Assembly: GCF_041911175.1 (NCBI RefSeq)
Contig: NZ_JAYRPN010000071.1
Location: 5,854 to 69,853, forward strand
DNA from: Tabrizicola sp.
Lineage (GTDB): Bacteria > Pseudomonadota > Alphaproteobacteria > Rhodobacterales > Rhodobacteraceae
Direction: 5' to 3'
Length of the DNA: 64,000 bases
Positions 59,508-64,000 of the stretch are shown piece by piece; within the stretch, counting starts at the first letter, position 1, and each line of letters opens with the position of its first letter. The translations under genes and the position numbers were made by a program. Under the pieces are notes generated by a model, which saw nothing but the letters and a program-made list of their open reading frames with translations, ran no database searches and had not been told where the DNA came from.

Positions 59508-60400
59508 TTTCCCGTTGCCCCGCCGCCGGACGACCTGCCGCCGCCATAGCCTCCACCACCCCCGTTGCCGCCCCGGTCGCGGTTCTGGCTGCCGACGTTC
59601 TTGTCCCGGCGGCTGTCGCGGCTGCCGAAGCTGACGGGATAGGACCTGTGGTCGGAGAATCCGCAGGCCGAGCAGGTCAGGTGCTGCATCCCGAGCCCGG
59701 ACTCGTAGCGCGTCGGTTGCTGGATCACCTCGCGGCTCCGCTCCAGCGTCAGGGCGCCGCAGTTCGGGCAGGTCCGGTTGGCGCGGCGGCTGCGCCAGAT
59801 GCCGAATCCCGCCAGCCCGGCCACCGCGCCGAAGCCCAGGCCGACCGTGCGCAGGCCCACACCGCCGCCCTCGTCCTCGAATCCGTCCGTGACCGAAACG
59901 GGCTGGCCTGCCAGGAAGGGCGTGATCAACCTGTCGCGGGCCGAGGCGATCCCGGCCTCGATCCCCACCGCGATCTTGCCCTCGCGCAGGGGCGGCAGCA
60001 CGGCGGTCGACAGCACCCGCGCCGCGCGCCCGTCGTAAACCGGGTCGTAGCCGGCGCCGAGCGCGATCCGCGCCTCGCGCGACTGGGTGTCGAGCAGGAG
60101 AAGGATGCCGTCATTGCGGTCCTTCCCGCCGACGCCCCATTCGTTGAAGAGCGCCTTGCCATAATCCTCGATCTTCAGTCCCGCGCCACCCTCGGCGGCA
60201 AGGCCCGGCACGGTGACCACCACCATCTGCACGCCCGTCGCCGCGCGCGTGTCGGTCAGGAGGCGGGTGATCCGCCCCTCTTCCGTGGCGTCCAGCACAT
60301 CGGCGAAATCGGACAGCGTGTCGCTTTGCGGAGAGGGGAGGCCTTGGGAAAACGCGGGCGTGGCAAGGGTCAGCGCGACGGCAACGAATCTGAGGAACAT
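59501..60400 (-). CDS. TPM-domain protein with a C-terminal Zn-ribbon and Gly-rich tail
   Basis: IEDYGKALFNEWGVG.KDRNDGILLL, RI.LG.GY; CPNC...CSAC. Confidence 0.88.
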   Translation of the reverse strand: MFLRFVAVALTLATPAFSQGLPSPQSDTLSDFADVLDATEEGRITRLLTDTRAATGVQMVVVTVPGLAAEGGAGLKIEDYGKALFNEWGVGGKDRNDGILLLLDTQSREARIALGAGYDPVYDGRAARVLSTAVLPPLREGKIAVGIEAGIASARDRLITPFLAGQPVSVTDGFEDEGGGVGLRTVGLGFGAVAGLAGFGIWRSRRANRTCPNCGALTLERSREVIQQPTRYESGLGMQHLTCSACGFSDHRSYPVSFGSRDSRRDKNVGSQNRDRGGNGGGGGYGGGRSSGGGATGKW

Positions 60401-61782
60401 GATGCAAGCATTTCTTGAACTGTCTTTGCGATCAGCATGACATCTTCCTCGCAACAGTCAAACGATCCGACCTGCACCCGGATCGCAAACCGCCCGTCCA
60501 CCCTGGTCTGGGTCAGATAGATTCGCCCATCGTCATTGATCCGCTGCAAAAGCGCCTCGGTCGCCGCATCTGTTTCCAAAGCGAAGCTGAAGAGCGAGAG
60601 CCGCGGCTCGGTCACGATCTCCACCCCCGGCAGCGCGGCAAGCTGGTCGCGCGATGTCAGCGCCCAGGCGATGTGGTTGCGAATCCGCCCCCGCAGCCCC
60701 TCCAGCCCGTAGGCGCGCAGCACGAACCACAGCTTCAGCGCCCGGAACCGGCGGCCGAGCGGCACCGTCCATTCGTTGAAGTTGACGATCTCCTCCCGCC
60801 CCGCCGTCTCCAGATAGGTCGGCCGCAGGCCCAGGGTGCGCACCTGTGCTCCCGGATCCTTCAGGAACTGGATCGAACAGTCGAACTGCGCGCCCAGCCA
60901 TTTGTGCGGGTTGAAAACGATGGACTCCGCCCCTTCGACCCCGGCCCACAACGCGCGGAACTCCGGGCAGATCATCGCCGACCCCGCCCAGGCCGCATCG
61001 ACATGCACCGGCACGCCCTCGGCCTTGGCCACCGCGATGCACTCGGCGATCCGGTCGAAGGCCCCGACGCTGGTGCCCCCCGCGCACAGGATCACGCCCG
61101 CAGGCTGCATCCCCGCCGCCCGGTCCGCCCGGATCGCCGCGCGCAGGGCGTCCCCGGTCATCGCCCGGTCGGCATCCGTCGCCACTTTCACCAGGTTGCG
61201 CTGCCCGATCCCCGCGACCCGGATCGCCTTGTCGACCGAGGAATGCGTCTCGGCGCTGGCGTAGAACCGCAGCACCGGCGCGCCCGACAGTCCCTCCTCC
61301 AGCCCGCGATACCCCAGCGCCTGCTCGCGCATCGTCAGCACCGCCGACAGCGTCGCATTCGTTGCCGAATCGTGGATCGTGCCGACAAACCCCTCCGGCA
61401 GTCCGACGGCCTGGCGCAGCCAGTCGACCATCACCTGCTCCACCTCGGTCGCGGCGGGAGAGGTCTGCCAGATCAGCGCGTTGCAGGCCATCGCATTGAC
61501 CAGCTGTTCCGCCAGCATCGAGGCAGGCGCAGCATTCGCCGGGAAATAGGCAAAGAAGCGCGGATGCTGCCAATGGGTCATGCCATCCGGCACGATCCGC
61601 TCGAAATCGGCCCAGATCGCCTCCATCGCCTCGGCGGCCTCGGGCGGGCCGGGGGGCAGCTGCCGTGCCACGGCGCCCGGCACCAGGGGCGCCCGCACCG
61701 GGCGGTTGCGCAAGCCCGCGTGGTAGTCCGCCGCCCAGTCCGCCGCCCGCTTCGACCAAAGCCGCAATCCCTCGTGGTCCAT
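60370..61782 (-). CDS. Group II PLP-dependent decarboxylase (aromatic-L-amino-acid decarboxylase-like)
   Basis: THWQHPRFFAYFPAN, TSPAATEVE, HSSVDKA, HVDAAWAG, SIVFNPHKW (PLP Lys), LGRRFRALKLWF. Confidence 0.92.
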   Translation of the reverse strand: MDHEGLRLWSKRAADWAADYHAGLRNRPVRAPLVPGAVARQLPPGPPEAAEAMEAIWADFERIVPDGMTHWQHPRFFAYFPANAAPASMLAEQLVNAMACNALIWQTSPAATEVEQVMVDWLRQAVGLPEGFVGTIHDSATNATLSAVLTMREQALGYRGLEEGLSGAPVLRFYASAETHSSVDKAIRVAGIGQRNLVKVATDADRAMTGDALRAAIRADRAAGMQPAGVILCAGGTSVGAFDRIAECIAVAKAEGVPVHVDAAWAGSAMICPEFRALWAGVEGAESIVFNPHKWLGAQFDCSIQFLKDPGAQVRTLGLRPTYLETAGREEIVNFNEWTVPLGRRFRALKLWFVLRAYGLEGLRGRIRNHIAWALTSRDQLAALPGVEIVTEPRLSLFSFALETDAATEALLQRINDDGRIYLTQTRVDGRFAIRVQVGSFDCCEEDVMLIAKTVQEMLASCSSDSLPSR

Positions 61783-61939
61783 CCTTGCCCCCTTTTAGTT
61801 AACGTGTTAATTATTATGTTCCTGCGTGGTTTGGCAAGCTTCCACCGGATTGCCGCCACGCAAGTTCCTTTTTCCCGCCATGCGATCTGGTTAAGGCTAT
61901 GCTCGGCAAAACCCAAGTTCCGATCCTGCGAGAGAACCC

Positions 61940-62560
61940 ATGACACTGACCCGCCGTTCCACCCTTCTTGGCCTGTCGGCCCTGCTCATGTCTGCCTGCG
62001 TCGGGGGCGGCGGCAAGTTCGAGACCGACTACACGCCGGTCCCCGCCGACCTGGCAAAGTCCTGGCGCCTGGCGGAAGTGCGGGTTTCAGTGCCGCAGAC
62101 GCTGGTGGTCTCCGAGGCGAAGACGCTTCTGCCCCGGGCCGATATCGTCTGGCGCGAAGACCCGCTCGGCGACCGCCATGCCCAGGTCGGCAAGATCATC
62201 CAGGCCGCCGTCCTGCGCGGCGCGCAAGGATTGCGCGGATCGCGCCCGGTGATCATCGACATCACGGTGACCCGATTCCACGCCCTGACCTTCGAGGCCG
62301 AGATGTCGAACCACGATTGGGGCGTGCACAACATCGACCTCATCGCCCAGGTTGTCGATGCCCGCTCCGGCGCGGTGCTGTTGCCGGCGACCAAGATCCG
62401 CGCCGAAACCCCGGCCTGGTCGGGCGAACGGATGAAGGCCGCCCGCCGCAAGGGCATCACCCAGAAGTCGATGATCACCAACCACGTTGCGGCCACCATC
62501 GCGGGCTGGCTCGGCCTTGGCCCGGACAACCGTGGCAGCTTCACCCGTCAGGGCGACTGA
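61940..62560 (+). CDS. Lipoprotein (DUF6778-like)
   Basis: Lipobox LLMSAC; VSEA...P.ADIVWREDP.GDR..QV; RFHALT. Confidence 0.8.
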   Translation: MTLTRRSTLLGLSALLMSACVGGGGKFETDYTPVPADLAKSWRLAEVRVSVPQTLVVSEAKTLLPRADIVWREDPLGDRHAQVGKIIQAAVLRGAQGLRGSRPVIIDITVTRFHALTFEAEMSNHDWGVHNIDLIAQVVDARSGAVLLPATKIRAETPAWSGERMKAARRKGITQKSMITNHVAATIAGWLGLGPDNRGSFTRQGD

Positions 62561-62609
62561 GGCCTGACAGGCTTGCGCGGGGCCGCGGCCCCGTGCTACG
62601 CCCGGGGTC

Positions 62610-62654
62610 ATGACGACGTTGCGCAATATCCGCATCTGCTGCATTACCCGCTGA
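62610..62654 (+). CDS. Putative cysS leader peptide MTTLRNIRICCITR
   Basis: ATG...TGC TGC...TGA uORF ending 82 nt before cysS; tandem Cys codons at 62637-62642. Confidence 0.7.
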   Translation: MTTLRNIRICCITR

Positions 62655-62729
62655 CCTCCGGGCGCGGGCGCTTCGTCATTCCCACGAATGAAAAGCCGGT
62701 CCCGCGCAGGGCTGCTGCGTGCTTGGGAC
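62647..62729 (+). promoter_or_regulatory. Putative translational attenuator of cysS (mutually exclusive helices)
   Basis: GCGCGGG(62662-68):CCCGCGC(62701-07) competes with GTCCC-GCGCAG(62699-709):CTGCGT-GCTT-GGGAC(62715-29), which covers the RBS. Confidence 0.6.
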
Positions 62730-62736
62730 GACTGAC

Positions 62737-64000
62737 ATGGTGACGATCCGCCTGACCAATTCGAAGACCCGGAAGAAGGAGGACTTCGTCCCCATCGACC
62801 CGGAAAACGTGCGGATGTATGTCTGCGGCCCCACCGTCTATGACCGCGCGCATCTGGGGAACGCACGCCCCGTGGTGGTGTTCGACACGCTGTTCCGTTT
62901 GTTGCGCCACGTCTACGGGCCGGGCCAGGTGACCTATGTCCGGAACTTCACCGACGTCGACGACAAGATCAACGCCGAGGCGCTGCGGCGGCAGAAGGCC
63001 GGGTCTCCGGGGACGCTGGAGGAACTGATCCACCAGCGCACCGAGGAGACCATCGCCTGGTACCACGCCGACATGGACGCCCTTGGCGCGCTGCGGCCCA
63101 GCATGGAACCCCGCGCGACGGAGTTCATCGGCCAGATGATCGCGATGACCGAGGGGTTGATCGCCTCGGGCCACGCCTATGCGGTGGAGGGGCACGTCCT
63201 GTTCCGGGTCCGGTCCTACAAGGATTACGGCAAGCTCTCGGGCCGCTCGGTGGACGACATGATCGCGGGCGCGCGGGTCGAGGTCGCGCCCTTCAAGGAA
63301 GACCCGATGGATTTCGTGCTGTGGAAGCCGTCGTCGGGGCAGGAACCCGGCTGGCCCTCGCCCTGGGGCAAGGGGCGTCCGGGCTGGCACATCGAATGTT
63401 CGGCGATGGCGCATGAGCTGCTGGGGGAAAGCTTCGACATCCACGGCGGCGGGCTGGACCTGCTATTCCCCCACCTCGAGAACGAGATCGCTCAGTCGGC
63501 CTGCGCCCATCCGCAGGGCGATTTCGCGCATTACTGGCTGCACAACGAGATGCTGCAGGTCGAGGGCAAGAAGATGTCCAAGAGCCTCGGCAACTTCTTC
63601 ACGGTGCGCGACCTGCTGGACCAGGGGATCCCGGGCGAGGTGATCCGGTTCGTCCTGTTGATGACGCATTACCGCAGCCCGATGGACTGGACGGCGGAGA
63701 AGGCGCGGCAGGCGGAAGCGACCTTGCGCAAGTGGCGCACGGCAACGGCTTCGGTTGTTGCGTCCGCCCCGCTGGCGGAGGTGGTCGAGGCGTTGGCCGA
63801 CGACCTCAACACCGCCGGGGCCTTGGCCGCGCTGCACGCGGCGGCGGGCGAGGGGGATTGGGCCGGGGTGAAGGCTTCGGCGGCGCTGCTTGGCCTGCTG
63901 GCCGATGGGTTGGGTGGCTGGGCTACGGCCCCGCAGGTCGACCTCAGCATGCAGACCGAACAGCTTGCCTCGCTCCGCGCCGCCGCGATGGCGTCCAAGG
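62737..64000 (+). CDS. cysS: Cysteine--tRNA ligase (3' end beyond the window)
   Basis: [60 protein letters not shown]. Confidence 0.96.

Follow-up and report, generated by a model that had tools for sequence, protein, structure and literature searches.

The cysS leader in the window analysed here, a stretch of 64,000 nucleotides, carries a short upstream open reading frame (uORF) with two adjacent cysteine codons and a set of RNA helices that compete for the same bases, and judged by its sequence this element almost certainly belongs to the published motif class uORFC-8-2. Comparative sequence evidence makes its function as a Cys-sensing leader peptide well supported. On balance, and with some reserve, we favour the reading that it attenuates cysS in response to cysteine by means of the ribosome, with translation as the most likely level of its action in the window. 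The features on which the argument rests, all on the + strand, are as follows.

62572..62601, + strand: promoter-like boxes, from sequence reading and 73 uATG-anchored leaders.
62610..62654, + strand: leader ORF of 14 codons plus UGA (ATG 62610 to TGA 62652-62654), encoding MTTLRNIRICCITR, from sequence reading.
62637..62642, + strand: codons 10 and 11, a UGC UGC pair for Cys at which the ribosome is proposed to stall.
62647..62668, + strand: hairpin T, CCCGC (62647-51) with GCGGG (62664-68), the stop codon on the loop side, from folding.
62662..62707, + strand: helix A, the proposed ON-state structure, which would remove the anti-SD, from folding and covariation.
62699..62729, + strand: helix B, the anti-SD, from folding.
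62737..64000, + strand: cysS, starting at ATG 62737 and running past the window end, from Pfam.

The gene downstream of the leader encodes cysteinyl-tRNA synthetase (CysRS), its product matching PF01406 (tRNA-synt_1e) at E = 6.4e-111 and sharing 70-89% identity with Paracoccaceae CysS proteins, of which those of Tabrizicola are nearest. The gene 5' of the leader, for a DUF6778 protein, ends at 62560. From the stop codon of the uORF to cysS the distance is 82 nt, and the Shine-Dalgarno (SD) sequence of cysS, GGGAC (62725-29), lies 7 nt 5' of the ATG at 62737. The positions given in the initial annotation for the uORF, the Cys pair, helices A and B, the CCCGC segment and the promoter boxes were confirmed base for base, and its core idea, that a Cys-sensing leader peptide controls cysS through two exclusive helices of which one hides the ribosome-binding site (RBS), is supported by what follows.

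The conservation of the uORF was examined in a set of relatives obtained by a search with the CysS N-terminus, in which one genome per species was kept and which yielded 80 Paracoccaceae/Rhodobacteraceae loci at 70-89% identity. A uORF was found 5' of cysS in 72 of these 80 loci, across many genera and at 53-130 nt from the gene, and the Cys-Cys reading frame singled out in the initial annotation thereby proved to be a family trait. A lack of the uORF or its Cys codons in relatives, named in that annotation as grounds for refutation, was thus not borne out. Among the 80 loci, the element was absent from R. capsulatus, R. viridis, Phaeovulum, Paragemmobacter and a few MAGs; of the eight loci lacking a uORF, one (L024) is uninformative, its sequence ending 20 nt 5' of cysS. 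Together with the window, the 72 loci gave 73 leader peptides, with lengths of 14 codons in 58, 13 codons in 13 and 15 codons in 2, the differences all being multiples of 3. The N-terminal half of the peptide is variable and the C-terminal I-C-C-I-T-[R/C/G] is conserved. Every leader holds at least one Cys (73/73) and 65/73 hold at least two, with Cys at position -5 from the stop in 62/73 and at -4 in 61/73, and Cys accounts for 17.5% of all residues across the 73 leaders. Ile is commoner still, at about 22% of leader residues by a position-table count. Moreover, codon 12 is AUU in 66/69 against a genome preference for AUC, a bias showing that constraints exist at the nucleotide level, and the stop codon stands in a UGA-C context in 65/73 leaders. 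RNAalifold returned no stem over the Cys codons within the uORF, where the mean z-score was +0.5. Chance occurrence was rejected on the recurrence of the uORF and helix architecture at 72/80 cysS loci and on a covariation score that was reached by 0/500 shuffles; with the Cys content and the covariation of helix A described below, the leader architecture is far beyond chance.

These observations place the element within a class that has been described before. The uORFC-8-2 motif is known from 145 examples, exclusively 5' of cysS in Rhodobacterales, and is marked by a conserved AUG, by a tandem of Cys codons that are mostly UGC and by a 3' U run; it was proposed, without experiment, as a ribosome-mediated transcription attenuator sensing Cys-tRNA(Cys) (Brewer et al. 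2021, RNA Biol 18:2417, PMC8632094). The window element resembles it in standing directly 5' of cysS, with its nearest relatives in Tabrizicola, Fuscovulum and other Paracoccaceae, and in its AUG-initiated uORF with tandem UGC UGC, which is likewise found at the 72 loci. There are also differences: the Cys codons are 10 and 11 of 14 in the window and in the 72 relatives, whereas they are 'usually at positions 14 and 15' in the published description, and the first of the two prominent stems published for the motif holds the Cys codons (PMC8632094), whereas the stems found here are T and A, with none over those codons. In addition, the published U run corresponds in the window to a homologous tract that is U-poor (3 U in 8), at least 5 U in 8 being found in 19-28 of the 72 relatives, and the covariation of helix A and the anti-SD pairing reported here are not mentioned in the text of PMC8632094. 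Rfam 15 has no entry for the motif, and in a literature search its name was used in Brewer et al. 2021 alone. The initial annotation named no Cys attenuator described for cysS in this family; uORFC-8-2 had already been published, the element belongs to a described motif class and the implied novelty was wrong.

The start of the transcript was approached through the 73 leaders anchored at the uATG. A -35 element (T at -35 in 55/73, G at -33 in 49/73) and a -10 element (T at -12 in 52/73, A at -11 in 46/73) are conserved in this set, and the base before the uATG is C in 64/73. For the window, the candidate -35 is CTTGCG (62572-77) or TTGCGC (62573-78) and the candidate -10 is GCTACG (62595-600) or CTACGC (62596-601), with a spacer of 17 nt. 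An SD-like 4-mer stands 5' of the uATG in 7/73 leaders and is lacking in 66/73, and the window uORF is without a Shine-Dalgarno sequence. The conserved -35/-10 spacing, the C-1/A+1 context and the missing SD together argue that the uORF is probably leaderless or nearly leaderless, with a predicted transcript start at about 62607-62610, that is, at the uAUG or within roughly 3 nt of it, which agrees with the weak promoter and nearly leaderless uORF put forward in the initial annotation. A generic promoter and terminator scan of the + strand from 61700 to 63000 called no promoter and no terminator-like site; the promoter would have been missed because the consensus used by the scan is of the E. 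coli type. The RNA-run contigs were low-depth assemblies (depth 2-10), some of which reached into promoter DNA, and they were uninformative on transcript ends.

The first of the three structures downstream of the Cys codons, hairpin T, has a dG of -11.2 kcal/mol for the window sequence, with a mean of -12.2 over 72 loci. Across the relatives, it is formed by the last two codons and UGAC pairing with GUC-R-S-GCGGG, and 93.5% of its cells are paired in alignment A1 of 72 leaders, where its changes are one-sided only (U-G/U-A and C-G/U-G) and no compensatory changes occur. One relative (L068) carries a self-folding 40-nt insertion in the T loop with both T arms kept. Insertions are also carried by relatives L047 and L078. 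The CCCGC:GCGGG pairing had entered the initial annotation as a side remark; the pairing itself was upheld and its minor status was not, since it belongs to this conserved third hairpin, in which the 5' arm of helix A probably lies paired by default.

Helix A consists of an outer stem, GCGCGGG (62662-62668) with CCCGCGC (62701-62707), and of inner parts formed by GCTT (62670-73) with AAGC (62693-96) and by TCATTC (62676-81) and GAATGA (62686-91) around the loop ccac, with an isolated dG of -22.1 kcal/mol in the window. The corresponding segment folds into a two-tier stem-loop of about -20 kcal/mol in every relative, with differing inner sequences. RNAalifold found no pairs on the full gappy alignment and recovered the outer stem alone on the helix A segment, and covariation was therefore counted in alignment columns on the named structures T and A. 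In alignment A1 (72 leaders), the outer stem is 81.8% paired, and its covariation, which comprises 19 double-sided cells and, in 12 sequences, the exchange of C-G for G-C at one pair, gave a score reached by 0/500 shuffles. This result was further strengthened by an unfitted MAFFT alignment restricted to the segment, in which the outer and inner stems together scored 0.179 against 0.147 for shuffles (1/500) and against 0.065-0.12 for controls with slid partners, and in which inner pairs switch between AU17 and GC11 and between CG17 and UA8. With such compensatory changes across the relatives, helix A is a real structure.

Helix B pairs GTCCC (62699-703) and GCGCAG (62704-09) with CTGCGT (62715-20) and GGGAC (62725-29), the last being the SD of cysS, and the segment 62699-62739 folded alone has a dG of -17.8 kcal/mol. 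In many relatives, isolated folding of the stretch that runs from region 3 (CCCGCGC) to the AUG pairs the CCC of that region with the SD's GGG. Of the two helices named in the initial annotation, covariation was thus obtained for A, and helix B is not alignable between genera and is without covariation support; nor can helix B or the anti-SD pairing covary, since other roles place constraints on each side. T and A share GCGGG (62664-68), and A and B share CCCGCGC (62701-07). With the 3' arm of T serving as the 5' arm of A and the 3' arm of A as the 5' arm of B, the leader is a four-segment chain of alternative pairings, in which T and A, and A and B, are mutually exclusive and overlap the end of the leader ORF.

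The consequences of these exclusions for the SD were modelled in two ways. In a forced-state comparison, T or A was imposed on 71 leaders and the unpaired probability was followed by position, and the SD core (-10 to -8) was more open by 0.35 on average with A forced than with T forced, with an increase in 62-72% of loci and a decrease in 4-13% (p = 1e-8 to 1e-10). The difference in accessibility peaks at the SD core and is confined to the SD. In the second approach, only the footprint of the ribosome was masked and no pairs were forced, for a free leader, a ribosome with Cys11 in the A site and a ribosome at the stop codon, with the following modelled values.

Free leader, 71 loci: P(T) 0.56, P(A) 0.13, SD core open 0.32.
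Free leader, window: P(T) 0.98, P(A) 0.001, SD core open 0.04.
Ribosome with Cys11 in the A site, 71 loci: P(T) 0.00, P(A) 0.48, SD open 0.47.
Ribosome with Cys11 in the A site, window: P(T) 0.00, P(A) 0.42, SD open 0.47.
Ribosome at the stop codon, 71 loci: P(T) 0.00, P(A) 0.37, SD open 0.43.
Ribosome at the stop codon, window: P(T) 0.00, P(A) 0.03, SD open 0.06.

The change from the free to the stalled state over all loci is a modest effect (0.32 to 0.47, p = 1.5e-6), and with one representative for each of 34 clusters at 80% identity it is from 0.33 to 0.43 (p = 0.0013, 11 up and 2 down), the p-values overstating independence because the sequences are phylogenetically related. The modelled family trend is therefore the same as that of the window, but weaker. 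Cruder measures of accessibility, namely 5' truncations with a wide span of -15 to -4 and one-sided constraints on the full-length RNA, gave no or a marginal switch signal, which we attribute to spurious long-range pairing with the 5' half of the uORF and with the cysS coding sequence. In the A state predicted for the window, the SD can still be contacted by a CCUCC lying just 3' of the uORF stop. The stalled state of the window reproduces the step by which, in the initial annotation, a ribosome held at Cys-Cys lets helix A form and turns cysS on. Its counterpart, in which a ribosome at the stop codon prevents A and keeps the SD closed, was recovered for the window and not for the family. By these models, the blocking of A from the stop codon is specific to the window lineage, in which about 4 nt of the spacing between the stop codon and region 2 have been lost relative to most relatives.

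For the transcript start, the stalling and the effect on expression, we infer the following course of events. The cysS mRNA would begin at the uAUG or within about 3 nt of it, and its 14-codon leader would be translated by a ribosome without the help of an SD. With ample Cys-tRNA(Cys), ribosomes would clear the leader fast and leave its 3' end usually free, such that the CCCGC tail could pair with GCGGG as hairpin T; with T formed, region 3 would be free to build helix B downstream, where GTCCC would mask the GGGAC of the SD and cysS would be poorly translated. When Cys-tRNA(Cys) is scarce, the ribosome would dwell with one of the two Cys codons (10 or 11) in its A site and cover the 5' arm of T, and the GCGCGGG thereby freed would pair with CCCGCGC as helix A, upon which helix B and its anti-SD would dissolve and more cysS would be translated. 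CysRS is essential, and the OFF state must consequently be leaky. In genera with a U-rich tract 3' of T, control may also have a transcriptional layer, through early termination at this hairpin.

The choice between translational and transcriptional control is the point at which this reading departs from the published one, and for the window we likewise infer the former. In classical transcription attenuation, T and a U-rich run would form an intrinsic terminator, and a ribosome stalled at the Cys codons would cover the 5' arm of T, allowing RNA polymerase to read into cysS. Exactly such attenuation was proposed by Brewer et al. 2021 (PMC8632094) on a consensus with a 3' U run. The GC-rich character of T and its stability of about -12 kcal/mol would suit a terminator, and at least 5 U in 8 nt are found in 19/72 relatives when counting starts 0-2 nt past the stem and in 28/72 when it may start up to 5 nt past it, with the Pseudorhodobacter tail CCUGUUUUCUUUUCG as a U-rich example. 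The geometry of the leader also speaks for it, for E. coli trpL has 14 codons with its regulatory pair at codons 10 and 11. Against this, the tail of T in the window, CGCUUCGUCAUUCC, has 3 U in the 8 nt past the stem and no terminator was called there by the scan, helices A and B of the window are followed by no U run, the Paracoccus tails have 2-4 U in 14, and the U tract begins 2-4 nt past the stem. The pyrimidine-rich tract, moreover, forms the 5' side of helix A's inner stem, which covaries, so that the conservation of the tract is explained without termination. A ribosome at the stop codon would cover T as well, leaving replete and starved cells not obviously distinguished, and neither an upstream antiterminator nor a stem over the Cys codons was found. 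We consider termination at T unlikely to be the principal mode of control, and the window hairpin, being without a U-tract, is better accommodated by translational attenuation.

Other routes were weighed against translational attenuation. Release of the ribosome at a weak UGA-C stop might expose a C/U-rich leader to Rho or to RNase, with stalling or helix A offering protection, and such Rho-dependent termination or mRNA decay would draw on the frequent UGAC stop context, on the pyrimidine-rich tract after T and on the lack of a canonical terminator in the window. The 82-nt leader downstream of the stop, however, is short, rich in G and highly structured and so poorly suited to the loading of Rho, and the CCC:GGG anti-SD geometry would be left unexplained; we judge this route improbable. 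It is more improbable still, to the point of being hard to credit, that the product of the uORF is a small hydrophobic peptide with a function of its own, or that the uORF is conserved as RNA alone, with Cys codons that do not sense Cys-tRNA. The conservation of I-C-C-I-T as amino acids, the abundance of Ile over Cys and the AUU bias at codon 12 might be cited in its favour, but the uORF is associated exclusively with cysS, the N-terminal half varies freely while the frame and the length of 13-15 codons are preserved, the stop codon is embedded in the switching hairpin, and the last codon is R, C or G, as a constraint on RNA pairing predicts and one on the peptide does not. T-box riboswitches, the usual control of cysS in Firmicutes, were rejected as an explanation: no T-box covariance model matched the leader at 62600-62740 with E up to 10, and the Rfam 15 scan of that interval, at the same limit, gave no match to any family.

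Sequestration of an SD that is opened by a stalled ribosome has parallels elsewhere. Leaderless polycysteine sORFs of mycobacteria mediate a validated cysteine-responsive translational attenuation, in which ribosomes stalled at the Cys tract block a structure that would otherwise hide the RBS of the gene that follows (Canestrari et al. 2020, bioRxiv 10.1101/834739). The window system shares with them consecutive Cys codons and an SD opened by the stall (computed as 0.04 to 0.47), would also share a leaderless start if the prediction for its uORF is right, and differs in that the mycobacterial system belongs to an actinobacterial host, controls cysteine-metabolism operons rather than cysS, has no sequence homology to it and has been validated experimentally, whereas the window system is predicted only. 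A 10-aa peptide with two Cys stands at the 5' end of the cysS mRNA of Deinococcus deserti, with a mapped transcription start at the start codon of the peptide, a leaderless arrangement for which transcription attenuation was proposed (de Groot et al. 2014, PMC4007540). It belongs to another phylum and has another peptide and structure. Among classical attenuators, pheST provides the precedent of an aminoacyl-tRNA synthetase operon under leader-peptide attenuation. Like trpL and pheST, the window has a short leader ORF, tandem cognate codons and alternative hairpins that overlap the end of the ORF; unlike them, it has no SD-led leader, no 1:2 pause hairpin and no strong U-tract terminator, and no GC-rich hairpin directly followed by a U-tract was found before its cysS. 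A likeness is also offered by ermC and cat in the four segments of their pairings (1:2 and 3:4 against 2:3) and in the freeing of a downstream SD by a ribosome stalled in the leader, but there the stall comes from an antibiotic and the nascent peptide rather than from a shortage of charged tRNA, and the hosts are Gram-positive.

Overall, the window genome is found to carry the uORFC-8-2 motif, and what is added here to its description is the covariation of helix A, hairpin T, the predicted leaderless geometry and the misfit of the published terminator model in the window lineage. That model fits the window lineage poorly, and RBS sequestration, still a prediction, is the better fit. Extending the proposal tentatively, as one that we find credible while stopping short of expecting it, the cysS leader of Rhodobacterales may be a leaderless four-segment translational switch rather than an intrinsic terminator, analogous in alphaproteobacteria to ermC and to the Cys attenuators of mycobacteria, and in many genera perhaps with a second promoter inside helix A that bypasses the attenuator. 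If true, the element would be an alphaproteobacterial sensor of tRNA charging for an essential synthetase, in the role played by the T-boxes of Firmicutes and the pheST leader of E. coli, and it would offer a compact natural case in which leaderless translation and an RNA switch are coupled.

In the short leader upstream of cysS, the Ile codon 12 lying directly 3' of the Cys-Cys pair (window 62643-62645, with its counterpart in leaders L001-L080) is AUU in 66 of 69 cases, an identity that is accounted for by none of the helices T, A or B. The Ile codons of the window's own cysS are AUC in 14 cases and AUU in none, and the AUU preference at leader codon 12 is a nucleotide-level or decoding-speed constraint. 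The leader stop is similarly uniform, with UGA followed by C in 65/73 leaders (window 62652-62655). UGA-C counts as a weak termination context in E. coli, and its presence here may keep ribosomes longer on the stop codon; alternatively, its conservation may reflect only its place within hairpin T, which the uORF tail forms with the segment downstream of the stop.

Upstream of the leader, the spacer separating the -35 and -10 boxes of its promoter contains a perfect GC palindrome, GGGGCCGCGGCCCC (window 62575-62596), which is predicted to fold into a 9-bp hairpin and is located 15 nt 3' of the stop of the DUF6778 gene. This element could be a U-less terminator of that upstream gene, or it could be an operator overlapping the leader promoter. 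The promoter scan returned a match elsewhere, the sole strong sigma-70-type match in the window's last 20 kb, situated in a divergent intergenic region and directed at a PLP-dependent decarboxylase gene (60370-61782):

61810-61837, minus strand: sigma-70-type promoter match TTGCCA-16-AATAAT, 10/12

Among the related loci, L068 (2371-2420) carries a self-complementary insertion of ~40 nt (GCGTTTCG...CGAAACGC) that separates region 2 from the leader stop. The insertion occupies the hairpin T loop and leaves both arms of the hairpin intact. In Mameliella and Antarctobacter (L047 and L078), ~15 extra nt (CTCCCGGCCAATGG / CCCCCCGGCCAACGG) between the leader stop and helix A part the 3' arm of T from the 5' arm of helix A, so that no nucleotides are common to both, and folding of these leaders is ambiguous as to switch operation. 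Two relatives from MAG records, L059 (CP059262.1, titled Exiguobacterium profundum) and L077 (CALRPT020000022.1, titled Variovorax paradoxus), combine a Paracoccaceae-type cysS (77% identical) with a Rhodobacterales leader and are probably mislabelled or contaminated. In Paragemmobacter straminiformis (L034), four tandem copies of gtgcaagggc(c/t)c stand in place of the uORF ~60-130 nt upstream of cysS, and the 3' half of helix A is retained together with a -10-like box.

This box, TTGnTA(A/G/T)(G/A), is found within helix A in 26 of the 72 leaders compared, is lacking in the window's lineage, and was placed as follows:

Within helix A: -10-like box, for example GTTGCTAGA, GTTGATATG and TTGGTAAG
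Immediately 5' of the CCCGC arm: -10-like box in L025, L028, L031, L033, L054, L066, L071 and others
Further loci listed for the -10-like box: L029, L043, L046, L034, L035 and L021

In sequence the box is similar to the -10 element of the promoter that serves the leader itself, and loci that have lost the uORF still keep it, the R. capsulatus version being TTGCGCTAAT. The box may serve as a second cysS promoter, one that would bypass the attenuator.
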